NCBI GenBank assembly: GCA_964530195.1
Contig: CAZGXQ010000030.1
Coordinates: forward strand, 1 to 31,567
Source: an uncultured Candidatus Saccharibacteria bacterium
Lineage (GTDB): Bacteria; Patescibacteriota; Minisyncoccia; Minisyncoccales; GBS-2
Direction: 5' to 3'
Length of the DNA: 31,567 nt
Shown: one piece after another, positions 1,137 through 31,567 of the stretch
How the letters are laid out: every line of letters starts with the position of its first letter
Numbering within the stretch: the first letter of the stretch is position 1
Notes under the pieces: model-generated
Told to the model about the DNA's origin: nothing
Databases searched by the model: none
What the model saw: only the letters and a program-made list of their open reading frames with translations
Made by a program: the position numbers and the translations under genes

Positions 1137-1454
1137 ATGCTGCCTTTTGAAAGATTAAGGAAATTAAACACAATAGACAATCTTTGGCTGTACATTCTCT
1201 TTCTTTTAAAAGAAAAAGAGCTTTATGGTTGGGAAATTCCAAAATTGATTGAAGAAAAATTTAATTTTCGACCAGGAAAAATTACCCCCTATCGCGTCCT
1301 TTATAGATTGGAAAAAGATGGATTTGTCAAAAGCAAAATGAAAGAAAGAAGAAGAGTTTATCAGATTACTAAGAAAGGTGAAGAAGAACTAAACAAGGCA
1401 AAGGATTTTTTCAAAAAATTGTTAGAGTTTTTTAAAGAAAATGACAAAAAATAA
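1137..1454 (+). CDS. PadR-family winged-helix transcriptional regulator
   Basis: LYILFLLKEKELYGWEI ... YRVLYRLEKDGFV ... RRVYQITKKGEEEL, the PadR signature. Confidence 0.88.
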   Translation: MLPFERLRKLNTIDNLWLYILFLLKEKELYGWEIPKLIEEKFNFRPGKITPYRVLYRLEKDGFVKSKMKERRRVYQITKKGEEELNKAKDFFKKLLEFFKENDKK

Positions 1455-2136
1455 AAAAATTAAAGAAATAAAAAACAAAGAAATTGCCAAAACTTTAAAA
1501 GAAATTGCAAAACTTTTAGAAATTGAGGGAATAGCGTTCAAGCCAAAAGCTTACCAGAGAGCAGCTGAAACTATAGAAAAATTAGAAACAGAATTAAAAG
1601 AAATTTATGAGAAAGAAGGAATCAAAGGACTTGAAAAAATTAAAGGTATTGGGAAAAGCATTGCCCAAAAAATTGAAGAAATTTTAAAAACTGGGAAAAG
1701 TAAGTATTTGGAAGAATTGAAAGAAAAAAACAGAATTAGAATTATTGTGACTCATTATTTTGAGACAAAAGGAGTGAGTTTGGATCAATTAAAAAGAGAT
1801 GCAAGAAAAAGAAAGATAATTTATTCAAGATTTACAAAACCTGCAAAACAGCTTTTGGAATTAGCAGGATCTTTAGAAAAAGCAATAGAAGCTATTGATA
1901 AAGTGGCTGCTTGGGCAAAGTCAAGAAATTTAGATTATGCTATTGAAACTGTCTTTAAAAAATGGTTAGAATTAGATAGATTAAAGCCAAAAGAGGTCGT
2001 AAAAAAACCTTACTTTCAAGGAAATCCTATGGTTTGGTCAGAAACAAAGAAAAAGTGGTATGTTATTACACCTGAGGGTGAATGGTTAGAATTTGCAGGA
2101 AAAGAATCGGATATTGAATGGCGAATTGAAAAATAA
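1441..2136 (+). CDS. DNA polymerase X/beta N-terminal (8-kDa lyase/HhH) domain fused to an unknown C-terminal domain; no polymerase domain
   Basis: NKEIA..LKEIA.LLEIEG..FKPKAYQRAA.TI ... IKGIGKSIAQKIEEILKTGK matches the PolX N-terminus. Residues after about 85 are unrelated to the PolX catalytic core. Confidence 0.8.
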   Translation: MTKNKKIKEIKNKEIAKTLKEIAKLLEIEGIAFKPKAYQRAAETIEKLETELKEIYEKEGIKGLEKIKGIGKSIAQKIEEILKTGKSKYLEELKEKNRIRIIVTHYFETKGVSLDQLKRDARKRKIIYSRFTKPAKQLLELAGSLEKAIEAIDKVAAWAKSRNLDYAIETVFKKWLELDRLKPKEVVKKPYFQGNPMVWSETKKKWYVITPEGEWLEFAGKESDIEWRIEK

Positions 2137-3735: not shown

Positions 3736-4830
3736 TCAAAATTTTGAACAAATTTCAACGATTGCTAATTCTAAAGGTAATTGTAAAATTGGAGAAAATT
3801 TCATTTTGTTTTGAGCATCCAAAAACACAACAATCATTCTTCTTAAATTTTCTTCAGTAATTTTTTTTGATATCCTCTCAATTTTGTTTATTTCATCCTC
3901 TCCCCTACTTTCTGAAATCAAATCCTTACCCCCAAGTTTAAAAACTAAAATGTCTCTTAATAAAGAAATCAAATCCTTAGCAAATTCTTGAAGGTCTATT
4001 CCTCTTTCATAGATTGAATTTAAAAATTCAATAGCTTCTTTTAATTTTTTTTCAATTATTAAATCAAAAAAATTAAAAAGAATTTCACTTTCTACCAAAC
4101 CTAACAAATTTTTAACATCTTGAGCGCTAATTTCTCTTTCCCCAAAAAGAGCGAAAATTTGATCCAACAAGCTTTCGGCATCCCTTAAGGAACCTTCTGC
4201 TTTTTGAGCTAAAATTTCTAGAGCCTCTTTTTCTATTTTTATTCTTTCTTTTTCAACAATAAACTGGAGCTTTTTTAAAATTTCCCCCTTTGTTAATCTC
4301 CTAAAATCAAATCTTTGGCAACGAGAAAGAATTGTTGGAATCATCTTATGAACTTCAGTTGTTGCTAAAATGAAAATGGTATGAGCTGGAGGTTCTTCTA
4401 AAGTTTTTAATAAAGCATTTGCTGCCTCTTTTGTTAATTGATGAGCTTCGTCAATAATGTAAACTTTGTATTTTGATTTTGAGGGTACAAACCTTATTCC
4501 ATCTCTTAATTCTCTAACTTCATCAATTCCTCGATGAGAAGCAGCATCAATTTCAATCAAATCCATTGACCTTCCTTCTTGAATTTCAATACAAGATGTA
4601 CATTCACAACAAGGCTCAAACTCTCCCTCTTTTCTTTTTTGGCAATTTAGTGCCTTTGCAAAAAGACGAGCCAAGGTTGTTTTCCCAGAACCTTTAGGTC
4701 CATAAAATAAATAAGCGTGAGAAATTATTCCAGAAGCTATTGCATTAGAAAGAGTTCTGGCAATGTGTTCTTGCCCAATAAATTCTGAAAATTTTTGAGG
4801 TCTATATTTTCGATAAAATGCTTTGGTCAT
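3736..4830 (-). CDS. dnaX: DNA polymerase III subunit gamma/tau (short, 364 aa)
   Basis: YRKYRPQKFSE, Walker A GPKGSGKTT, Zn motif CQ...CCECTSC, EIDAASHRGIDEVR, IIDEAH, TILSRCQRF. Confidence 0.97.
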   Translation of the reverse strand: MTKAFYRKYRPQKFSEFIGQEHIARTLSNAIASGIISHAYLFYGPKGSGKTTLARLFAKALNCQKRKEGEFEPCCECTSCIEIQEGRSMDLIEIDAASHRGIDEVRELRDGIRFVPSKSKYKVYIIDEAHQLTKEAANALLKTLEEPPAHTIFILATTEVHKMIPTILSRCQRFDFRRLTKGEILKKLQFIVEKERIKIEKEALEILAQKAEGSLRDAESLLDQIFALFGEREISAQDVKNLLGLVESEILFNFFDLIIEKKLKEAIEFLNSIYERGIDLQEFAKDLISLLRDILVFKLGGKDLISESRGEDEINKIERISKKITEENLRRMIVVFLDAQNKMKFSPILQLPLELAIVEICSKF

Positions 4831-5447
4831 TTCCTGAACACAAAAATTTTATAACCAAAGAAATTCCAAAACATTACCACTAAAGTAGCAAAAATTTTGA
4901 TCAAATTCATTAGGGCTCCAGCTGAAATTTTAAAATAAGAAAGAAAAGTGGTTCCCAAAAAGACAATTGTTGAATTCAAAAAAAGACCAATTAAACTTAC
5001 AATTAAAAATACAATAAACTCTTTTTGGACCATTTTTGTTTCAATTTCAAATGTCCAAGCTTTGTTCAGAAAATAAGAATTTGTAGCAGCTAATAAAAAG
5101 GAAATAGCATTTAAAGGAATAATTTTCAAGCCCTTCACGATTCCAGTTACTGCCGATAAGAAATTTAAAGTTCCAATGTCAATTAAGGTATTTAAAACTC
5201 CAACTTCAGCAAATTTTGCAAATTGAAAAATTAAAGGGAAAAAAGAACGAAAAACTGAAGCAATTTTTATTCCAAGTAGAAAAATTAAAGGGAAAATAAA
5301 AAGAGAAAGAAAGCTAAATTTTTTTAAAATCAAAAATTTTTCGAATTCCCTAATTTTGGGGTTCAAAATAATAAAAAGAAAAAAAATAGCAGATAAGAAT
5401 CCACACAGTAAGGGAAAATAAACATCTTTTTTATTTTCAATTTTCAT
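4827..5447 (-). CDS. GtrA-like membrane protein (lipid-linked sugar flippase family) with N-terminal TM extension
   Basis: QFAKFAEVGVLNTLIDIG ... NSYFLNKAWTF ... WNFFGYKIFVF. Overlaps the dnaX start by ATGA. Confidence 0.85.
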   Translation of the reverse strand: MKIENKKDVYFPLLCGFLSAIFFLFIILNPKIREFEKFLILKKFSFLSLFIFPLIFLLGIKIASVFRSFFPLIFQFAKFAEVGVLNTLIDIGTLNFLSAVTGIVKGLKIIPLNAISFLLAATNSYFLNKAWTFEIETKMVQKEFIVFLIVSLIGLFLNSTIVFLGTTFLSYFKISAGALMNLIKIFATLVVMFWNFFGYKIFVFRK

Positions 5448-5976
5448 TTTTCTTTTTTGAAAACAACAAAAACAAACTTATTAAAATTAAGAAAACAAAA
5501 ATTCCTGCAATTCCAAAGTTTTTTTCTAATATAATTCCTGTTTTTGTGGCAAAGAAAACCAAAATTGAACTTAAAATTACTCCAGCGCTTATTGCAAAAA
5601 ATGCAACCTTAAAAGGGAGTCCTAATAAAAAGCTAATAATTGATCCGGCCCAAGCTCCAGTAAAGGGAAGAGGAATTCCTACAAATAAAGCTAACCCCAA
5701 AAGATTTTTAAAGCTTTTCGAGCCATATTTTTTTTGGAGCCTTGAGAAAAAGAAATCTGAGAAAGATTTCAAAAAAGAAACCCTTTGAAAAAGGGATGAT
5801 TTTAGAAAATTCAAAAAAATAAAAATTAAAGGCACAACTAAAACATTTCCTAAACTTGACCAAAAGAAAGCTTCAGAATCCTTTAATTTGAAAAAGACTA
5901 AAGAAAAAGGCAGAGCGCCTCTTACTTCTGCAATTGGCAACATTGCCATCAAAAAAGTTGAGATCCTAGGATCCAT
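5437..5976 (-). CDS. COG2426-type small multidrug export-like membrane protein
   Basis: [13 protein letters not shown] ... [18 protein letters not shown] motifs; several TM segments. Confidence 0.8.
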
Positions 5977-5984
5977 ATTTTGCT

Positions 5985-6030
5985 ATTTTACCAAGTTAAA
6001 ATGGACAAGTAAAGCCAAAGTTTATAAAAT
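5985..6030. promoter_or_regulatory. divergent leaderless-type promoters (COG2426 operon and cysS)
   Basis: Minus: TGG-TAAAAT (5993-5985), 8 nt before ATG 5976. Plus: TGGACA-17-TAAAAT (6002-6030), 7 nt before ATG 6038. Confidence 0.65.
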
Positions 6031-6037
6031 TAAATTG

Positions 6038-7420
6038 ATGATTAAATTTTTTAATACCCTATCTAGAAAAATTGAGGTTTTTAATCCATTAAAAAATAAA
6101 AAAGTTGGGCTTTATACTTGCGGTCCTACAGTATATTGGTTTGCACATATTGGAAATTTAAGAACTTATATTTTTGAGGATGTATTAAAAAGAGTCTTGC
6201 TCTATAATGGCTACAAAGTAAAGCATGTGATGAATATCACTGATGTTGGACATTTAGTTTCTGATGAAGATGTAGGAGAAGATAAAATTTTATTGGCGGC
6301 AGAAAGAGAAAAAAAATCGGCAAAAGAAATTGCTAAATTTTATGAGAAAGCTTTCAAGAAAGATTTGAGAAGATTGAACATTTTAGAGCCCGATGTTTGG
6401 GTAAGAGCTACCGAAACCATTAAAGATCAGATTGAGTTTATAAAAATTTTAGAAAAAAAAGGTTTTACTTATTTAACCGAAGACGGAGTTTACTTTGATA
6501 CCTCAAAATTGAAAAAATACGGAAGACTTTGGCCAAAGGGAATGAAAATTTTACCAGGAGCTAGAGTTGAAATTATTCCTGGAAAGAGAAATCCAACAGA
6601 TTTTGCTCTTTGGAAGTTTGCAAAAAAAAGAAAAGAAATGGTTTGGAATTCTCCCTGGGGAAGAGGTTTCCCTGGTTGGCATACAGAGTGCGTTGTTATG
6701 GCAAAAAATTTTTTGGGAGTGCCATTTGACATTCATTGTGGAGGAATAGATCACATTTTGATTCATCATACTAATGAAATTGCCCAAGCAGAAGCTGCTT
6801 TTTCAAAAATTTTGGCAAACTATTGGTTACATGGTGAGTTTTTATTAGTTGAAGGAAAAAAGATGGCAAAATCTTTAGGAAATGTTTTTACTTTAAATGA
6901 TTTGATACAAAAAGGATTCAATCCTCTCTCTTTCCGCTACTTTTGTCTTCAAGCTCATTATAGATCAAAACTAAATTTTACCTTCGAAGCTTTAAAAGCA
7001 AGCGAAAGCGCCCTAAAAAATCTTTATAGTTTAGTTTCTTTTTTAGCTTCACAAAAAAATAAAAAAATCAACCTCAAAAAAATACAAAAAGAAAAAGAAA
7101 GATTTTTAAAAATCGTTAACGAAGATTTGAATACTCCCCAGGCTTTAGCCTTAATGTGGGAAGTTTTGTTAAATAAATCTTTGAATGAAAATGAAAAATA
7201 TTTAATTTTAACTGATTTTGATAGAATTTTTGGATTGAATTTAGATAAAATTCCAGCCTTGAAGATTCCGAAAAAGATTGAAAAAATGGTTTCAAAAAGG
7301 GAAAAGTTGAGAAAAGAAAAAAAATGGGAAGAAGCAGATAAGATTAGAGAGAAAATAAAAGAAGCAGGATTTATAATAGAAGATACAGAAAGTGGACCAA
7401 AAATTAGAAAAATTTTTTAG
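6038..7420 (+). CDS. cysS: cysteine--tRNA ligase (start moved from 5888 to ATG 6038)
   Basis: [56 protein letters not shown]. The upstream 50 codons overlap the opposite-strand gene. Confidence 0.97.
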
Positions 7421-8585: not shown

Positions 8586-11222
8586 ATGACAGATAATTCT
8601 CAAATTGAAAAGCTACCTCCTCAGTCAATTGAAGCAGAGAAATCTCTTTTGGGATGTTTGATGCTCGATAAAGACGCAATTTTAAAGGTAATTGATTTTC
8701 TCTCCCCTCAAGATTTTTATAAAAGCGCACACCAAGAAATATATTTAGCTTGTCAAGAACTTTTTGCTAAAGGAGAACCAATTGATATTCTCTCCCTTTC
8801 AAATAGATTAAAAGAAAAAGGAAAATTAGAAGAAGTTGGTGGAATAAGTTATTTAACTGAATTAGTAAACAGTGTTCCTACTGCAAGCCACGTTTTCCAT
8901 TATGCAAAAATTGTTCAAAAGAAGAGGATTTTGAGAGATTTAATTTCAGCTAGTCAAGAGATCGCACTTTTGGCTTATGATGAAAGTCAAGATCCTGAGA
9001 AAATTTTAGATGAGGCCGAAAAAAGAATTTTTAGTATAGCTCAAAAAGGAATTACTCAAAACTTTATTTCAGTAAAAGATACCTTAGAAGAAGCCTTTAA
9101 TAGAATTGACCAACTCTCAAAACATGGAGGGGGTTTAAGGGGTATTCCAACAGGATTTTCAGATTTAGATAACATTTTAGCCGGTCTTCAAAAATCAGAT
9201 ATGATTATTTTAGCAGCCAGACCTACATTAGGAAAAAGTGCCTTTGCTACTTGCATTGCGGCAAACGCTGCAATCAAATACAAGGTACCTGTTGGCATTT
9301 TCTCTTTAGAAATGTCAAGAGATCAGATTGTAGATAGATTAATTTCTATGGTTTCTGGCGTGGATTTGTGGAGAATAAGAACAGGAAGATTGTCAGCTGA
9401 AGGAGAAGATAATGATTTTACTAGAATTAGAAATGCATTAAGTGTGCTCGCTGAGGCCCCAATTTATATTGATGATGGAGCTGCAACTAATATTTTACAA
9501 ATGAAAGCAATGGCAAGAAGACTTCAGGCAGAAAAAGGTTTGGGGTTATTAATTATTGATTATCTTCAATTAATTCAACCCTTAAATCCCAAAGCCTCAC
9601 CAGTGGAACAGGTTTCTGAGAATTCAAGAGCATTAAAAGCTTTGGCAAAAGAACTTAACATTCCAGTATTAGTTATTTCTCAACTTTCAAGAGCAGTAGA
9701 ACAAAGATCACCTCAAATTCCAAGACTTGCAGATTTGAGACAGTCAGGATGTTTAGCAGGAGATACTCTTTTAACTAGAGCAGATACCGGAGAGAGAGTG
9801 AAAATAAAAGACTTAGTGGGAAAAAAAGATATTTTAATTTATACCCTTGATAAAGATTGGAAGTTGAGAGTTGGGAAAATTTCTAAAGTTTTTTGGAGCG
9901 GAAAAAAGAAGGTGTATTTATTAAAAACTCGAAGTGGATTTGAGATCAAAGCTTCAGCCAATCATCCTTTTAGAAAATTTGATGGTTGGTATCCCTTAGA
10001 AAAACTAAAAATTGGTGACAAAATTGCTACAGCTAAAAAACTCATTCCCTTTGCCCCTAAAAACGAACTTTCTGAAGATGAAATCATTCTCTTGGCCCAT
10101 CTTTTAGGTGATGGTTGTGTAGTTGAGCATCAACCTATTCATTATACGAGTAGCAGTTTAAGAAATATTCAAATAGTTGCAAAAGCTGCAAAGAAATTGT
10201 TTAAAATAGAACCTCGACTCGTCCGCCAGGAAAACTGGTATCATCTTTATCTTCCATCCCCATACCATTTAGCACCAGGAAAACATCACCCGATTATAAA
10301 TTGGTATGAAAAATTAGGATTGAAACCCGCTCATACATGGGAAAAGGTTATACCCGAAGCTGTTTTTACTCTCGATAAAAAGAAATTGGCTCTTTTTCTT
10401 TCTCATCTTTGGGCGACAGATGGAAATGTTAGCGAAAGAAAAATGAAAAAAAGAAAAGCATCTACCGCTTTATTTTACTCTACAACTAGTTTAAGAATGG
10501 CTCAAGATCTAAAAGAGCTTTTGTTAAGATTTGAAATTAGAAGTAGAATTTCTGAAAAGAAAAAAGTAGGTTATAAACCATGGTATATGGTTGAAATTCA
10601 GGGAAAAGAACATCAAATGAAATTTCTTAAAGAAATTGGAGTTTTTGGTCAAGAAAAGATTGTAACTAAATTGATAAAAAATCTTGAAAAAATTGTTCCA
10701 AATACCAATTTAGATGTAGTACCAAAAGAAGTTTGGTATTTAATCGATGAAATAAGAAGGAAAAAAGAATTAAGCTGGAAACAACTTTGCCAGAGTTTAG
10801 GAGTTGCTTTTGGAGGGAGGAATTCTTTATTCAAAAGAAATATCAGTTTCCAAAGATTAAAAATAATAGCTAATCATCTCTCTTCTCCAGAACTTTCAAA
10901 TTTAGCTGAAGGGGATGTTTTTTGGGACGAAATTGTTTCAATCAAACCTTTAAAAGTTGAGGATGTTTATGATCTTACTATTCCAGGAACTCATAACTTT
11001 TTGGCTAATAATATTATTGTTCACAATTCGATTGAACAAGATGCGGATGTGGTTTTGTTTATTTATCGTGAAGATTATTATCGTCCAGAAACTTCAAGGA
11101 AAGGAATTGCCGATATTATCGTGGCTAAACACCGAAATGGTCCTGTGGGAAGAGTTGAATTATACTTTGATGAAAGAACTGTAAGTTTTAGAGATTTAGA
11201 AAAAGGTTTTTTTGAAGAATAA
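8586..11222 (+). CDS. dnaB: replicative DNA helicase DnaB containing an intein
   Basis: LPPQSIEAEKSLLG, GIPTGF, ARPTLGKS, IIDYLQL, LSQ-type VISQLSRAVEQR, DLRQSG|intein|SIEQDAD, IIVAKHRNGPVG. The spliced product would be 452 aa. Confidence 0.98.
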   Translation: MTDNSQIEKLPPQSIEAEKSLLGCLMLDKDAILKVIDFLSPQDFYKSAHQEIYLACQELFAKGEPIDILSLSNRLKEKGKLEEVGGISYLTELVNSVPTASHVFHYAKIVQKKRILRDLISASQEIALLAYDESQDPEKILDEAEKRIFSIAQKGITQNFISVKDTLEEAFNRIDQLSKHGGGLRGIPTGFSDLDNILAGLQKSDMIILAARPTLGKSAFATCIAANAAIKYKVPVGIFSLEMSRDQIVDRLISMVSGVDLWRIRTGRLSAEGEDNDFTRIRNALSVLAEAPIYIDDGAATNILQMKAMARRLQAEKGLGLLIIDYLQLIQPLNPKASPVEQVSENSRALKALAKELNIPVLVISQLSRAVEQRSPQIPRLADLRQSGCLAGDTLLTRADTGERVKIKDLVGKKDILIYTLDKDWKLRVGKISKVFWSGKKKVYLLKTRSGFEIKASANHPFRKFDGWYPLEKLKIGDKIATAKKLIPFAPKNELSEDEIILLAHLLGDGCVVEHQPIHYTSSSLRNIQIVAKAAKKLFKIEPRLVRQENWYHLYLPSPYHLAPGKHHPIINWYEKLGLKPAHTWEKVIPEAVFTLDKKKLALFLSHLWATDGNVSERKMKKRKASTALFYSTTSLRMAQDLKELLLRFEIRSRISEKKKVGYKPWYMVEIQGKEHQMKFLKEIGVFGQEKIVTKLIKNLEKIVPNTNLDVVPKEVWYLIDEIRRKKELSWKQLCQSLGVAFGGRNSLFKRNISFQRLKIIANHLSSPELSNLAEGDVFWDEIVSIKPLKVEDVYDLTIPGTHNFLANNIIVHNSIEQDADVVLFIYREDYYRPETSRKGIADIIVAKHRNGPVGRVELYFDERTVSFRDLEKGFFEE
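9750..11027 (+). mobile_element. intein (426 aa) with LAGLIDADG homing endonuclease at the RESG/SIEQ DnaB site
   Basis: Begins CLAGDT, block B ASANHPF, blocks C and E LLAHLLGDG and FLSHLWATDG, ends HNFLANNIIVHN followed by Ser+1. Confidence 0.96.
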
Positions 11223-26660: not shown

Positions 26661-27584
26661 ATGCCGGCAAATTTGCCCCCTCAATTTTTTGAAATTCAAA
26701 AGAAATTGAATGAAGCTTCTTCGATTGAAGAAAAAATTCAAATTTATGAAGAGTTATTAAGAATTGTACCAAAACACAAAGGAACAGAAAGAATTCAGGA
26801 GGATTTAAAAAGAAAAATAGCTAGATTAAGGAAAGCAGAAAAGAAAAAGCCAAAGCACACCCAATTATTTTCGATTAAAAAAGAAGGAGCGGGACAAATT
26901 GTAATCGTTGGTCCTCCAAATTCTGGAAAGTCAAGTTTACTAAATGTCTTGACCCAAGCTAATGTAAAGGTTGCTCCTTACCCCTTTACTACTCAAGTTC
27001 CTCAACCTGGAATGGTACCTTATGAAAATTTGCTTTTTCAGTTAATAGATATGCCCCCAATAACGAAAGATTTTCTTTTGGGATGGCAAAAAGAATTAAT
27101 GAAGAATGCAGATTTATTGTTAATTTTGCTGGACCTTTCAAGTGAAAATTTTTTTGAAGACTTAAATTTCTTTCAAAATAAAATTTTAGAATTGAATTTA
27201 ACAAACAAAAAAATTATTTGGGTTGGAAACAAAATTGATTTGGAAGAGGGAAAGAAAAATTTTGAAAAAATAAAAGAGAAATTTAAAATTTCACCAATTT
27301 CTGTACTAAAGAAAATCGGTTTGGAAGATTTAAAGAAAGAGATTTTTGAAAAAATGGAGATAGTAAGAGTTTATCCCAAACCTAAAAATAAAGAGCCAAA
27401 TTTTACCCAACCTCTTGTTGTAAAAAAAGGAACTAAATTAATTGATTTGGCAAAAGAAATTCATCAAAATCTTTTTGAGAATTTTAAATTTGCAAAGTTA
27501 TTCAAAAAAGATTCAAAAAAGCCAAAAATTGTGGGAAAAGAATATGTTTTGGAAGACGAAGATATTGTTGAAATTCACACTTAA
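26661..27584 (+). CDS. OBG-superfamily DRG/Rbg1-like GTPase with C-terminal TGS domain
   Basis: MPANLPP, VPKHKGT, G1 GPPNSGKS, G2 YPFTT, G3 DMPP, G4 NKID, TGS VGKEYVLEDEDIVEIH. Confidence 0.87.
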   Translation: MPANLPPQFFEIQKKLNEASSIEEKIQIYEELLRIVPKHKGTERIQEDLKRKIARLRKAEKKKPKHTQLFSIKKEGAGQIVIVGPPNSGKSSLLNVLTQANVKVAPYPFTTQVPQPGMVPYENLLFQLIDMPPITKDFLLGWQKELMKNADLLLILLDLSSENFFEDLNFFQNKILELNLTNKKIIWVGNKIDLEEGKKNFEKIKEKFKISPISVLKKIGLEDLKKEIFEKMEIVRVYPKPKNKEPNFTQPLVVKKGTKLIDLAKEIHQNLFENFKFAKLFKKDSKKPKIVGKEYVLEDEDIVEIHT

Positions 27585-27585
27585 A

Positions 27586-27614
27586 TTGACAAAATGTTTA
27601 AAAATTTATAAAGT
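27586..27614 (+). promoter_or_regulatory. promoter of the 27633 orphan
   Basis: TTGACA (27586-91), 17 nt, TAAAGT (27609-14), starting 1 nt after the GTPase stop. SD AAAGGAGG follows. Confidence 0.6.
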
Positions 27615-27632
27615 AAAAAGAAAGGAGGGGAA

Positions 27633-27947
27633 ATGAGGGAAATAAGAATTTTTAGAGAATGGAATGAGTCTAAGGAGTCTAGAGAGGGAAAACTTGAAAT
27701 TCATGTGACCGATAGATCCGACTCCCCGTCTCTAAGGGTAGTATACTTTGAAGGCTTGGTTTTGTCATTCAAAAAGGGAGAAAATGGTTATTCTTTGGTA
27801 GGCAAGGGTTATGCAGAGAAACAACAATTGGTGGATTCGAAAATAAAAATTGAAAAAAGTGAAGAAAGTTTCATTAAAGAAATTTTGGAAATAGTTGACA
27901 GATACTTTCCCTACAATCCCCCACAACTCCAACTTTCGCTCTTTTGA
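27633..27947 (+). CDS. orphan protein, 104 aa, ending in the beta-clamp-binding consensus QLSLF
   Basis: Strong SD, own promoter and terminator. C-terminus ...YNPPQLQLSLF-stop. Confidence 0.78.
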   Translation: MREIRIFREWNESKESREGKLEIHVTDRSDSPSLRVVYFEGLVLSFKKGENGYSLVGKGYAEKQQLVDSKIKIEKSEESFIKEILEIVDRYFPYNPPQLQLSLF

Positions 27948-27980
27948 AGGCGGTCTTTTTGGGCCGCCTTATTCTTTTTT
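27947..27980 (+). terminator. intrinsic terminator between convergent genes
   Basis: AAGGCGGTCT-TTTT-GGGCCGCCTT stem, then ATTCTTTTTT. Confidence 0.72.
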
Positions 27981-30900
27981 GAGAGAATTTTTTAATTTCA
28001 ATTGGAGAATTTTTGCCTGAAGTATTTTTTGAGCTTTATATTCTTGAAAGCTTCTTTTTCTTTCATCTACCCACTTTTCAAACTGGATTATTTTTGATTT
28101 AAATAACCAAACTACTGTCAAAGCCAAAATCAAGGGCAAGATAAAGGAATCAAAGAGAATGTTGTTTGTTAATCCAGTGGGAATTCCAGTTACAGCTCCA
28201 GCCACTGCCGTTTTAGAGACAATAATTTCAGCTTCATCTGAAAGAGAAGTTTGAGAAGTTGAGACTATCGCTTTATTTTTTAATTTGGTTTGACCAAAAG
28301 GAAAATTTTCTCTTGAAGCTACATCCGCTTTAAAAGTAATAAGTTTTGTTTCATTGGGCGCCAAATTTTCAATATTTAGACCTGTTAAAATGTCTCCTGC
28401 AACTGAAACATTGTTTATTTTCAAGTCTCCCCTATAAATTATTTTTTCTGGCAAAATATCTTTGACTAAAAGATTTGAAATAGAATTTTCCCCAGCTTTA
28501 ACTGAGATTGCAAAAACTAAAACCTCTCCAGGTTCAGCAATAATTGATTTTTCAAATCCAGTTCCTTTTGAAAGATTTCGAACAGTTTTGCTAATTGTAA
28601 AAACTCCGACAACAGAAACATTAACAGTAACAGAATCTGAAGCACTACCTCCTGGTCCATAGCAAGTAAGAGTAAAGACCTTAGTAGAAGTGACATTTGA
28701 AATTGTTTCAGTTCCAGAAATTGATTTTGTACCTGACCAATTTCCAGATGCTGTACAATAATTTGCATTAGTTGAAGTCCAACTCAAAGTGATTGAGGAC
28801 TCAGAAGGTACTGTAATTAAGTCGTCTTTTCCATTCACTTTTAAATCAACAGAGGGTGGTAAATAAGTTGGAGGTTGATAGCAGCTGTAAACATTGATTG
28901 GAACAGAGGTTTCTCTAACCATTCCTCCACCTTCTACTCTTACTTTGGCAAAGAAAGTTCCGGTATTTGAATAAGAACAAAGATTTGAAGCTGTAAATGA
29001 ATTTTGAGAAGTAGTTTGAATTAATTCAAATGAACCATCTGAAGTGCAGTCAAAATAATAAGTTAAATTGCCAGAAAAATCTCTTGAAACATTAGCAGTT
29101 AAAGAAACATAATTTAATGGCACACACCCTGAAGAAGGATTAGCAGAAAGAGAAACTGAGAAAGAAGGAGAAGAAACATAAACTACAACATTATCTGAAA
29201 CAGTTCCTCCAGGACCAGAACAAGTAATGGTATAAGTCTTTTGAGACAAAATTCCAGAAATTGTTTCTGTTCCTGAAGTTGGTTTTGAGCCTGACCAATC
29301 ACCAGAAGCCTGGCAAGAAGTTACATTGTTTGAAGTCCAAGTTAAAGTAACAGAGCCATTATAAGGAATTGTTATTGGACCATCTGATCCATTGGCTTTC
29401 AAGTCAACTACAGGATAAGGTGAAGAAACTAAAATTGTAGCTTGAGCCCAAGTAGGAGGCGCAGCTCCTCTTTCAACATAAACCTTTGCATTATAAGTTC
29501 CTCCACTTGGATAATTGCAAGCGTCAACAACGGTTAATGGATTTGTTGTAGTGGTTAAAAATTCGTATTCAAAAGTTCCATCTGAGGTGCAATCAAATTT
29601 GTAATTTATTGGACCAATAGCTGTTCCAGAAACTGTGGCTTTCAAATCTACTCCAGTTAGTGGTGCAGTTCCTGTAGCAGGAATGGCTTCTAAAGTTACA
29701 AAGAGAGTTTGGGCTTTAACTAAAATTTGCATTGAATCTGAAGCTTGAGCTCCTTTTGAATCTGTAACAGTTAAGACGCAAAGAATTTGAGTATCGCTAT
29801 CTACAGCTGGTGCTGTAAATGTTGGCTGGGCAATGTTTGGATTAGAGAGGGTTCCGCCAGAACAATTCCAAGAAAAAGTAATTGGATCTGAATCAGGATC
29901 AAAACCTGACCCTTCCAAAACTATACTTTGAGTTTCCAAAACTTCTTTGTCAGGACCTGCATTAGCTATTGGTGGTCGGTTGCAATCTCGCCAAGTAACA
30001 GAAATTGAAGGCGGGGTTGTAGAAACTATTTCTTGTGAACCATCTGGCTTTTTGCCATAAACTTTTCCTGAAAAAGTATAGGTTCCAGGAGCATCTTTTT
30101 TAATTTGCCAAGTTTTACTACAAGAGGTTTGAAATCCGCAAGATTGACATTCGTCATTTAAACAAACTTTTTCTACTCCCTGGAGATCTTGAGCTGAAAT
30201 TGTAAAGGTAACATATTGACCAATACAAGGTTCGGTTGAAGAAGCAACAGTTAATGTACCTCTTGCTGGATCGTTTGGCTCACATCTTGAATCTTGAACA
30301 CATCTTGTCTCAGATTCTCTATCACAACCTGAGGGAGTACAAGATCTTGTTCTTTCTTGCCACATTTGATTTTGAGCACATCCTCCTTGACCACAACCTC
30401 TGTCTTGCCATTCTGACCAATTTGTGCATTGACAAGTTATACATCTTGGATCGTTTGAGTAAGTTTTGAATTTGCAAGATCCACAATCACAATAGTAATC
30501 ATAATAAGTTGTTCCTTGGCATCCATCTTTTGAATCGCAATTTTCTATGTTAATCCAATTTGATCTTTGATAACAGGCATTATTTGAGCACCCTCTTTCA
30601 ATTTTTTCTCTCTGAACCCAATTTCCAGAACATCTATAATTATCTGTCCAAGAATCAGTTCCACAATCTTCAACAGTTCTCCATTCTGGATTTGCATAAC
30701 ACTGGGCATTTGAACAACCTCTTTCTATCCATTTTCTTTGAAGATATCTTGAACTTGAGCACTGATATTCATTTGTCCATCCTGAAGTTCCACAATCTTG
30801 AATTGTTGTCCAAGAAGACCATTCTAAACAAGAATCGGAATCGTAATTTCCACAAGTTCTTTGCTGGACATAGTTTCCAGAGCATATTTTTTCTATTTGA

Positions 30901-31567
30901 CCTGAATATAAACATTCATCTTGACAAGAAACAACACATTGTCCATTTTGACAAATTTTTCCCTCTAGAGAACAATCTTTAATATTTTCCCATTGACGAT
31001 ATTGATAACAAGCATTATTTGAGCACCCTCTCTTTATTTTTTCTCTCTGAACCCAATTTCCAGAACATCTGTAATTATCGGTCCAAGTATCAGTTCCACA
31101 ATCTTGAACTTGTCTCCATTCAGCGTGAGTATAGCATTGGGCATTAGAGCAACCTCTCTCTACATACTCTCTTTCCAAATACCTAGAGCTTGAACATCTA
31201 TAATTTGAAGTCCAGCCACTTTCTCCACAATAAGTTTCATTTTGCCAACTTGACCATTCCAAGCAAGGATCAGAATCGTAGTTGCCGCAGGTTCTCTTTT
31301 GAACATAATTTCCAAAGCATCTTCTTTCTGTTTGGCTTAAATATGAGCATTCATTTTGACAAGAAATAACACATTGACCTGATTGGCAAATTTTACCTTG
31401 AGCTGAACAATTTTCCCAATTTCTCCATTCTTCATTTGCAAAACACTGATTATTGGAGCATCCTCTATTGATATATTTTCTCTGAACCCAATTTCCATAA
31501 CATCTATATTCATTTGTCCAAGTATCAGTTCCACAATCTTGAATTGTTGTCCAAGATGACCACTCTA
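27969..31567 (-). CDS. large cell-surface protein (5' end outside window, >1198 aa): Cys-rich repeats, TSP1-like motif, PKD/Ig-like modules, DUF11-like domain, C-terminal TM anchor
   Basis: Manual translation shows the frame is open from 31565 to the track start at 31262. NRPPIANAGPD (PKD); two VDLK.NG...TL.WTS.N...C.ASG.WSG modules; FTISKTVRN...PGE...KDILP (DUF11-like); IPTG, TM helix and basic tail. Confidence 0.9.
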   Translation of the reverse strand, partial: EWSSWTTIQDCGTDTWTNEYRCYGNWVQRKYINRGCSNNQCFANEEWRNWENCSAQGKICQSGQCVISCQNECSYLSQTERRCFGNYVQKRTCGNYDSDPCLEWSSWQNETYCGESGWTSNYRCSSSRYLEREYVERGCSNAQCYTHAEWRQVQDCGTDTWTDNYRCSGNWVQREKIKRGCSNNACYQYRQWENIKDCSLEGKICQNGQCVVSCQDECLYSGQIEKICSGNYVQQRTCGNYDSDSCLEWSSWTTIQDCGTSGWTNEYQCSSSRYLQRKWIERGCSNAQCYANPEWRTVEDCGTDSWTDNYRCSGNWVQREKIERGCSNNACYQRSNWINIENCDSKDGCQGTTYYDYYCDCGSCKFKTYSNDPRCITCQCTNWSEWQDRGCGQGGCAQNQMWQERTRSCTPSGCDRESETRCVQDSRCEPNDPARGTLTVASSTEPCIGQYVTFTISAQDLQGVEKVCLNDECQSCGFQTSCSKTWQIKKDAPGTYTFSGKVYGKKPDGSQEIVSTTPPSISVTWRDCNRPPIANAGPDKEVLETQSIVLEGSGFDPDSDPITFSWNCSGGTLSNPNIAQPTFTAPAVDSDTQILCVLTVTDSKGAQASDSMQILVKAQTLFVTLEAIPATGTAPLTGVDLKATVSGTAIGPINYKFDCTSDGTFEYEFLTTTTNPLTVVDACNYPSGGTYNAKVYVERGAAPPTWAQATILVSSPYPVVDLKANGSDGPITIPYNGSVTLTWTSNNVTSCQASGDWSGSKPTSGTETISGILSQKTYTITCSGPGGTVSDNVVVYVSSPSFSVSLSANPSSGCVPLNYVSLTANVSRDFSGNLTYYFDCTSDGSFELIQTTSQNSFTASNLCSYSNTGTFFAKVRVEGGGMVRETSVPINVYSCYQPPTYLPPSVDLKVNGKDDLITVPSESSITLSWTSTNANYCTASGNWSGTKSISGTETISNVTSTKVFTLTCYGPGGSASDSVTVNVSVVGVFTISKTVRNLSKGTGFEKSIIAEPGEVLVFAISVKAGENSISNLLVKDILPEKIIYRGDLKINNVSVAGDILTGLNIENLAPNETKLITFKADVASRENFPFGQTKLKNKAIVSTSQTSLSDEAEIIVSKTAVAGAVTGIPTGLTNNILFDSFILPLILALTVVWLFKSKIIQFEKWVDERKRSFQEYKAQKILQAKILQLKLKNSLKKE
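28610..29700 (-). repeat. diverged duplication of a two-module Ig/PKD-like unit (about 550 bp); boundaries approximate
   Basis: Y.FDCTSDG.FE occurs twice (offset about 543) and WSG.K..SGTETIS...TC.GPGG twice (offset about 558). Confidence 0.75.
30571..31440 (-). repeat. intragenic tandem repeat of about 435 bp (145 aa), plus a partial third copy to the edge
   Basis: 30571-30673 matches 31006-31108 nearly base for base (offset 435). A 30-nt segment at 30786-30815 is identical to 31527-31556. Confidence 0.9.

Follow-up and report, generated by a model that had tools for sequence, protein, structure and literature searches.

The subject of this analysis is a small open reading frame (ORF) in a 31,567-nucleotide stretch of an uncultured Candidatus Saccharibacteria genome (assembly GCA_964530195.1, contig CAZGXQ010000030.1, positions 1 to 31,567), hereafter termed the window. 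The ORF is a real gene, and its 104-amino-acid product is a small cytoplasmic protein confined to a single lineage, representing an extremely narrow yet genuine orphan family. The product ends exactly in QLSLF, which corresponds to the strict consensus of peptides that bind the DnaN (beta) sliding clamp, and there is good support for regarding this tail as a C-terminal docking peptide. DnaN appears to be the best candidate partner, although the case is tentative and is weakened by the presence of Asp at the first motif position in the sister clade. Judging from sequence, we lean with some reserve towards a small clamp-tethered accessory or regulatory protein with DnaN as its partner, rather than a toxin.

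Conservation of the C-terminal pentapeptide

The C-terminal end of the product, FPYNPPQLQLSLF / DRYFPYNPPQLQLSLF before the TGA, reads PPQLQLSLF-stop. Its last five residues (100-104) match the clamp-binding consensus of Dalrymple, QL[SD]LF or Q-phi-x-L-F, in its strict form, as the initial annotation of this DNA had stated. This was the only match to the strict consensus or to the family pattern given below among the 32 window proteins, and the tail QLQLSLF also holds an overlapping hexapeptide-type QLQLSL at residues 98-103. Given the amino-acid composition of the window, a C-terminal QL[SD]LF is expected by chance at 2.4e-6 per protein, which corresponds to 7.5e-5 for the window and 2e-3 for a genome of 800 genes. 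The motif is striking for one window but not decisive in a large scan, and the weight of the argument therefore rests on its conservation in homologues.

Homologues were sought in a word-indexed database of 5.8e9 proteins using the single sequence, a 3-sequence profile and an 8-sequence profile, and in an exhaustive phmmer run over 1.84e9 representatives. Together these searches defined a whole family of eight distinct sequences in five 90% clusters. Scans with the family profile of GTDB genomes, JGI metagenome contigs and IMG/VR viral contigs returned no match, and an exact 51-mer of the small gene was not matched in GTDB genomes, from whose representatives the species is absent. The same contig with an identical small ORF was present in eight metagenome assemblies, and a variant in two JGI samples. 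Source metagenomes of these contigs include ERZ27289263, ERZ650669, JGI 3300005278 and JGI 3300000106, with SRR8369165 for the second clade. The family comprised two deep clades: the window clade (P0001 and P0002), with proteins of 104 amino acids, and a second clade (P0003, P0004, P0005, P0006, P0007 and P0008), with proteins of 112-114 amino acids whose domain shared 38-40% identity with that of the window protein. The initial description of a stand-alone orphan is thus borne out: the gene is genuine, has no family or fold match, and is very narrowly distributed.

Anchoring the C-termini at the stop codon gave FPY-NPPQL-QLSLF for the window clade, and FPY-PISPLPKKSP-DLPLW, FAY/FVY-PISPPPKKSP-DLSLW and FSY-PIFPSQNNSP-DLPLF for the second clade, summarized by the family pattern [QD]-L-[SP]-L-[FW]-COOH. 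L2, L4 and F/W5 were invariant in all eight sequences, whilst position 3 was either Ser (4/8) or Pro. The stop codon directly followed the aromatic residue in 8/8 sequences despite a 5-residue indel in the linker, with TAG standing immediately after W or F in the homologues. Across loci Leu4 was encoded by CTC, CTA, TTA and CTT, and Asp by GAT and GAC, indicative of selection at the amino-acid level. The initial annotation had proposed looking for homologues that keep the tail whilst the rest diverges, and for any that lack it or run beyond it. L2, L4, F/W5 and the terminal stop are indeed kept whilst linker and domain diverge, and no homologue extends further, but Gln1 is replaced by Asp in the second clade, leaving most homologues without the canonical first residue; the outcome is thus mixed.

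The small gene and its predicted parts are as follows, all on the forward strand.

27586-27614 (+): promoter-like site TTGACA-17 nt-TAAAGT, 10/12 consensus matches
27623-27628 (+): Shine-Dalgarno sequence AGGAGG, 4 nt before the ATG
27633-27947 (+): small ORF, ATG start, 104 amino acids, TGA stop
27633-27914 (+): predicted folded domain, codons 1-94, from AlphaFold2 models and conservation, ending in a conserved F-x-Y
27813-27860 (+): hypervariable loop, codons 61-76, from strain comparison (L009 2837-2884)
27915-27929 (+): Pro-rich flexible linker NPPQL, codons 95-99, from alignments and model confidence
27930-27944 (+): docking-type pentapeptide QLSLF, codons 100-104, from sequence and alignments, with a putative binding partner
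27945-27947 (+): TGA stop codon, immediately 3' of the Phe104 codon
27947-27980 (+): predicted intrinsic terminator hairpin (GGCGGTC...GGCCGCC) and T-run, from sequence and folding

We regard the ORF as a real gene because it is syntenic in two deep clades, displays a ratio of non-synonymous to synonymous substitution rates (dN/dS) below 1, and has a conserved promoter-like site, Shine-Dalgarno sequence and terminator. Every copy lay in the order TGT (-), DRG/Rbg-like GTPase gene (+), small ORF (+) and large surface-protein gene (-), with the small gene 48-62 nt 3' of the GTPase gene in all carriers. Synonymous sites were saturated between the clades (proportion of synonymous differences, pS, ~0.8). 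The dN/dS ratio was 0.20-0.25 between L016 and the other second-clade members, and 0.36-0.67 for closer pairs, with 0.20-0.36 as the full range for L016 against L011, L014 and L015. The small protein evolves much faster than its neighbours, being 63% identical where the GTPase was 91-93% identical. Between the window strain and the L009/L010 strain we counted 5 changes in the 315 nt of the small ORF (1.6%) and 5 in the 2313 nt of three upstream genes (0.2%). Four of the five differences in the small ORF were non-synonymous (A61V, E62G, V67G and S76N) and all fell in residues 61-76, the loop in which P0004 also has an indel.

The promoter-like site begins two bases past the stop codon of the upstream GTPase gene. 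Its counterpart in the homologous loci is TTGATT-17-TAAAAT, extended by a TG, and all these sites are recognized by consensus matches only. AGGAGG was kept in all homologous loci, as was an equivalent GGCGGC/GCCGCC hairpin 3' of the gene. In the window the terminator stem comprises 10 bp with 6 GC pairs (27947-27970) and its predicted folding energy is -19 kcal/mol (z = -4.5; equalled by 0/200 shuffles); its setting between two convergent genes, with A-rich and T-rich flanks, makes it probably bidirectional. By these signals the small gene looks like its own transcription unit, and the 104-residue ORF with terminal QLSLF, the TTGACA promoter-like site, AGGAGG and terminator of the initial annotation were all found to be present. 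TGA is an ordinary stop in the window, ending 9/32 genes including dnaX, the penicillin-binding protein (PBP) gene and rsmH, which rules out read-through under an alternative genetic code; the protein therefore truly ends at Phe104. An RNA element at the small ORF was likewise discounted, an Rfam scan of the window having given only two tRNAs, both elsewhere. An antisense promoter-like match (ATGACA-17-TATACT, 27768-27740 (-), 10/12 matches) lies inside the small ORF, directed toward its 5' end; it may be noise because such matches occur at ~2.6x the shuffle expectation in this AT-rich region.

One AlphaFold2 model was built per clade, from an alignment of only eight sequences. The two models share a topology, with mean predicted local distance difference test (pLDDT) values of 67.8 and 64.8. 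The predicted domain combines a five-strand antiparallel beta-meander with a single helix (residues 75-91), running in the models from five long antiparallel strands through a low-confidence loop and a 17-residue helix to a tail with pLDDT <50. The hypervariable loop (residues 61-76) is the low-confidence one that joins strand 5 to the helix. The linker is 5 residues long in the window clade versus 10 in the second clade (PISPxPKKSP or PIFPSQNNSP). The motif segment follows it at the extreme C-terminus of all sequences and has low pLDDT in both models, with values <50 at residues 98-104 of the window protein and 101-112 of P0003; both models thus predict a disordered, accessible tail. The protein is hydrophilic with a near-neutral pI, and no signal peptide or membrane segment was evident in its sequence. 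No match above threshold was obtained in Pfam, NCBIfam, PADLOC or PHROGs, and none in the PDB by sequence or by profile. Foldseek searches with the pLDDT-68 model gave no significant match (best E 0.68 in the PDB and 0.085 in BFVD, TM <0.32). These uniformly negative family and fold searches agree with the earlier statement that the protein has no recognisable polymerase or repair domain.

Candidate partners of the tail

Known clamp-binding peptides include QLGLF of Escherichia coli Pol II and QLVLGL of Pol IV. If DnaN is the partner, the pentapeptide would most likely act as a short linear docking motif, with L-[F/W] inserting in subsite I and the Q/D-L part in subsite II of the hydrophobic cleft of the DnaN beta sliding clamp. 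Docking would tether the small domain to DNA-loaded clamps, where it could act as an adaptor or competitor at modest affinity. The presence of dnaX (3736-4830), dnaB and recR in the window points to a bacterial replisome, in which a DnaN clamp is expected; dnaN itself was absent from the window and from the fetched loci. The family pattern fits a clamp tag at 4/5 positions and in its typical location, and fails at Gln1 in one clade. QLSLF is the motif of Bacillus subtilis PolC and binds B. subtilis DnaN with a dissociation constant (KD) of 3.1 uM and E. coli beta with a KD of 0.64 uM; in the same study positions 4 and 5 ranked as critical and position 2 as moderate, whilst position 3 was without effect (bioRxiv 10.64898/2026.05.27.728225). 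Gln1 strengthens binding without being strictly necessary, the delta subunit having Ala at this position, whereas the terminal LF is critical (bioRxiv 10.1101/2025.08.20.671105).

Several observations weigh against DnaN. Position 1 is Gln in only the two window-clade sequences and Asp in 6/8, the whole second clade. Alanine scans place this position among the three most important: with Q1A, binding to B. subtilis DnaN is lost altogether and that to E. coli beta becomes markedly weaker (bioRxiv 10.64898/2026.05.27.728225). With only two deep clades, there are few independent observations of conservation, and ~14,000 C-terminal QL[SD]LF matches are expected by chance in 5.8e9 proteins. Nothing in the neighbourhood ties the small gene to replication: dnaX, dnaB and recR are 16-24 kb away, and the whole region is simply collinear in carriers. 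Similarity of the domain to known clamp clients was not detectable in Pfam, NCBIfam, the PDB or by Foldseek. A more specific proposal, which we consider distinctly improbable, is that the protein represents a new type of clamp-tethered factor comprising a novel-fold domain, a hypervariable loop and a minimal C-terminal tag that tolerates Asp1. Such a factor could be either a lineage-specific regulator of replication or initiation, or a clamp-occupying guard against foreign (phage) polymerases whose loop tracks a fast-evolving target. The former would operate in a small-genome, CPR-like lineage for which no clamp-linked initiation regulator of the Hda or YabA type was noticed in this analysis, none having been sought.

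The tail may instead dock onto another hub or partner, as a mimic of the FtsZ C-terminal peptide (on FtsA or SepF), as a mimic of the SSB tail, or as a ligand of the neighbouring DRG-like GTPase, though we judge this unlikely. The FtsZ peptide has the form D-I-P-x-F-L-R/K, in which Pro3 hardly varies, position 4 is variable and the aromatic residue is followed by a hydrophobic one, Leu. The second-clade D-L-P-L-[WF] resembles its D-[IV]-P-x-F core, but Ser occupies position 3 in 4/8 family members, Leu4 is invariant and nothing follows the aromatic residue. As far as sequence can tell, the fit to the FtsZ peptide is worse than that to the clamp motif. The SSB tail DDDIPF consists of an acidic run followed by [IL]-P-F-COOH; an acidic residue before a hydrophobic C-terminus recalls it, but the family has no acidic run and its penultimate residue is Leu in 8/8 where Pro is needed, and we rejected an SSB-tail mimic on account of this invariant Leu.

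A role beside the GTPase is suggested by the position of the small gene, which is always immediately 3' of the DRG/Rbg-like GTPase gene, and eukaryotic DRGs have dedicated partner proteins, the DRG family regulatory proteins (DFRPs) Tma46 and Gir2 being partners of DRG/Rbg GTPases. This adjacency is uninformative, however, because the carrier loci are collinear over at least 20 kb. Moreover, the evolutionary rates of the two proteins differ, and locus L022, whose GTPase is 66% identical, is without the small gene and has a convergent membrane-protein gene directly 3' of the GTPase. An obligate partner of the DRG-like GTPase was rejected, as none of the 36 GTPase loci fetched from GTDB genomes of other lineages contained a homologue; in several of them unrelated genes such as SpoU-like or rpsF/ssb-like genes follow the GTPase. 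Searching six-frame translations of all fetched loci with the family profile gave matches only in known carriers.

It is equally doubtful that the tail does not dock onto a partner at all, but packs on its own beta-sheet, mediates self-association or serves as a non-polar C-terminal degron giving a short half-life. The strict requirement for a free C-terminus would fit either packing or a degron. A beta-strand is drawn at residues 99-103 in one AlphaFold model; its pLDDT is ~36, however, and in the second model the tail is coil with pLDDT 34-43. Non-polar C-terminal pentapeptides are classic determinants of proteolysis, reported by Parsell, Silber and Sauer in 1990 to direct rapid degradation in bacteria. 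Neither idea explains the L-x-L-aromatic spacing, the free position 3 or the exact QLSLF, and the Pro-rich linker of variable length argues for an exposed, tethered peptide.

That the protein saturates the DnaN cleft and arrests replication, as a clamp-blocking toxin, replication brake or abortive-infection effector, draws on the same motif evidence as the clamp-tethered accessory protein, and we consider it very unlikely. There are precedents in SocB of Caulobacter and RipA of Streptococcus pneumoniae, two small toxins whose target is the hydrophobic pocket of DnaN; both are encoded in antitoxin operons and are under ClpX control (PMC12795458). SocB and RipA are mutually unrelated and target the same cleft, indicating that new small clamp binders arise repeatedly. 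The fast evolution and hypervariable loop of the family would suit a conflict role, with which they are compatible without demonstrating one. However, SocB and RipA each adjoin an antitoxin gene, whereas the window gene is apparently monocistronic with a constitutive-looking promoter and has no conserved small partner ORF. Its neighbours in every locus are the GTPase gene (307 amino acids in the window) and a convergent surface-protein gene of >1000 amino acids, with no antitoxin pairing, and a toxin-antitoxin reading was rejected for want of a partner gene. The dN/dS is below 1, and there was no PADLOC or PHROG match, no relative in viral contigs and no mobile-element context. We favour an accessory or regulatory protein over a toxin because the gene stands alone, has no antitoxin-like partner and sits among conserved housekeeping neighbours. 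The replication brake linked to dormancy and the abortive-infection effector floated in the initial annotation, and likewise a toxin, accordingly found no support.

Finally, the resemblance to the clamp motif could be coincidental, the conservation merely reflecting shared ancestry of a few sequences and the C-terminus having no part in function; the two-clade sampling, the number of chance matches database-wide and the unconserved canonical Gln all speak for this, but it is highly improbable given that L-x-L-aromatic-stop survives saturated synonymous sites, 38-40% domain identity, a linker indel and four Leu4 codons.

Genomic context

The window has a GC content of 31% and includes genes for a PadR regulator, EF-P, DnaX, cysteinyl-tRNA synthetase (CysRS), an intein-bearing DnaB, RecR, L21, RmuC, ClpB, TGT and RimP, together with a dcw-type block (MraZ, RsmH, PBP and Mur ligase). 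The genes flanking the small ORF are as follows.

26661-27584 (+): DRG/Rbg-like GTPase, 307 amino acids, with MMR_HSR1 and TGS domains
27969-31262 (-): convergent surface-protein gene (L001 10337-14386; L002 10337-14080), with Cys-rich N-terminal repeats, PKD, DUF11 and a C-terminal membrane anchor

The best PDB matches of the GTPase were yeast Rbg1 and Rbg2 (E ~1e-31), and the DRG family is usually regarded as archaeal and eukaryotic. Its nearest relatives in GTDB were from metagenome-assembled genomes (MAGs) of candidate phyla radiation (CPR) type (Parcubacteria GBS-2, Pacebacteria and 'Saccharibacteria'; 50-66% identity), followed by Omnitrophota and Aminicenantes (~40-45%), with close homologues also in Ratteibacteria. 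In Omnitrophota and Ratteibacteria the GTPase gene is followed by rpsF- and ssb-like genes. Locus L022 (GTDB MAG DAIRUS010000002.1, 3001-4457) is the only one from a GTDB genome with a GTPase as close (66%) as that of the second clade; a 444-residue protein is encoded upstream of the GTPase in place of TGT, and there is no small ORF. The family was either lost in the L022 lineage or arose after the split, two histories that the GTPase identities (window-L022 66%, window-L014 66%, L022-L014 59%) do not separate.

The surface protein was 1247 versus 1349 amino acids long between contigs with an identical small ORF, and its internal repeats were 83-88% identical by BLAST; the length difference points to a varying number of repeats in the Cys-rich module, or to its collapse during assembly. 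Beyond this gene, L001-L003 carry a gene for a sortase and additional ones with PKD and CAP domains. Elsewhere in the window, dnaB (8586-11222 (+)) is an 878-residue ORF containing an intein with a LAGLIDADG homing endonuclease at ~residues 399-814. A 231-residue protein (1441-2136 (+)), encoded with a 14-nt overlap with the upstream PadR-family gene, had HHH_8 as its sole Pfam match. HHH_8 is the 8-kDa domain found at the N-terminus of Pol beta/Pol X-type enzymes, and the protein may represent a Pol X-like lyase domain that is either truncated or stand-alone. The longest ORF for CysRS (5888-7420 (+), TTG start) overlaps the divergent gene at 5437-5976 (-) by 89 nt; the true start is probably further downstream, as the catalytic domain begins at residue 65.

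Significance and relation to known systems

Were binding to DnaN true, the protein would be a new minimal, fold-novel client of the clamp interactome from the barely studied CPR, and would offer a testable entry point to replication control in unculturable organisms. [D]-L-x-L-[W/F]-COOH would then be a usable clamp tag, widening motif searches that are now anchored on Gln. If there is no binding, it would add to the small lineage-restricted proteins whose hydrophobic C-terminus is conserved, and would be of little general consequence. Unless the relaxed tag turns out to be general, the biological reach does not go beyond a small lineage of uncultured organisms.

In common with the DFRP partners, the small gene lies immediately 3' of a DRG/Rbg-like GTPase gene, but its product has no DFRP Pfam match and the gene is absent beside this GTPase in every other lineage examined. 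The likeness to the FtsZ peptide holds for the second clade only, where a disordered linker leads into an acidic and an aliphatic residue, then Pro, any residue and an aromatic residue; the carrier in the window family is not a tubulin homologue, and Pro3 is not conserved. SocB and RipA resemble the window protein in being small and lineage-restricted, and differ in having an antitoxin partner and ClpX control, whereas the window gene has no partner gene. Family libraries gave no match for the window protein, the SocB and RipA sequences themselves not being compared.

In relation to established clamp clients, the attached 94-residue module differs in having no polymerase, repair, AAA+ or other recognisable fold, and the second clade has Asp for Gln at position 1. 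A search of the literature for DLPLW, DLSLW or DLPLF as a named motif yielded no relevant report. In mycobacteria, the ImuB motif QLPLWG has been validated genetically and by imaging (PMC10421592), and the LPLW of the second clade equals its positions 2-5. Like known clamp clients, the window protein ends exactly in QLSLF after a flexible Pro-rich segment, and the fixed L2, L4 and aromatic residue 5 of the family, together with its free position 3, parallel the measured importance of each position in clamp binding.

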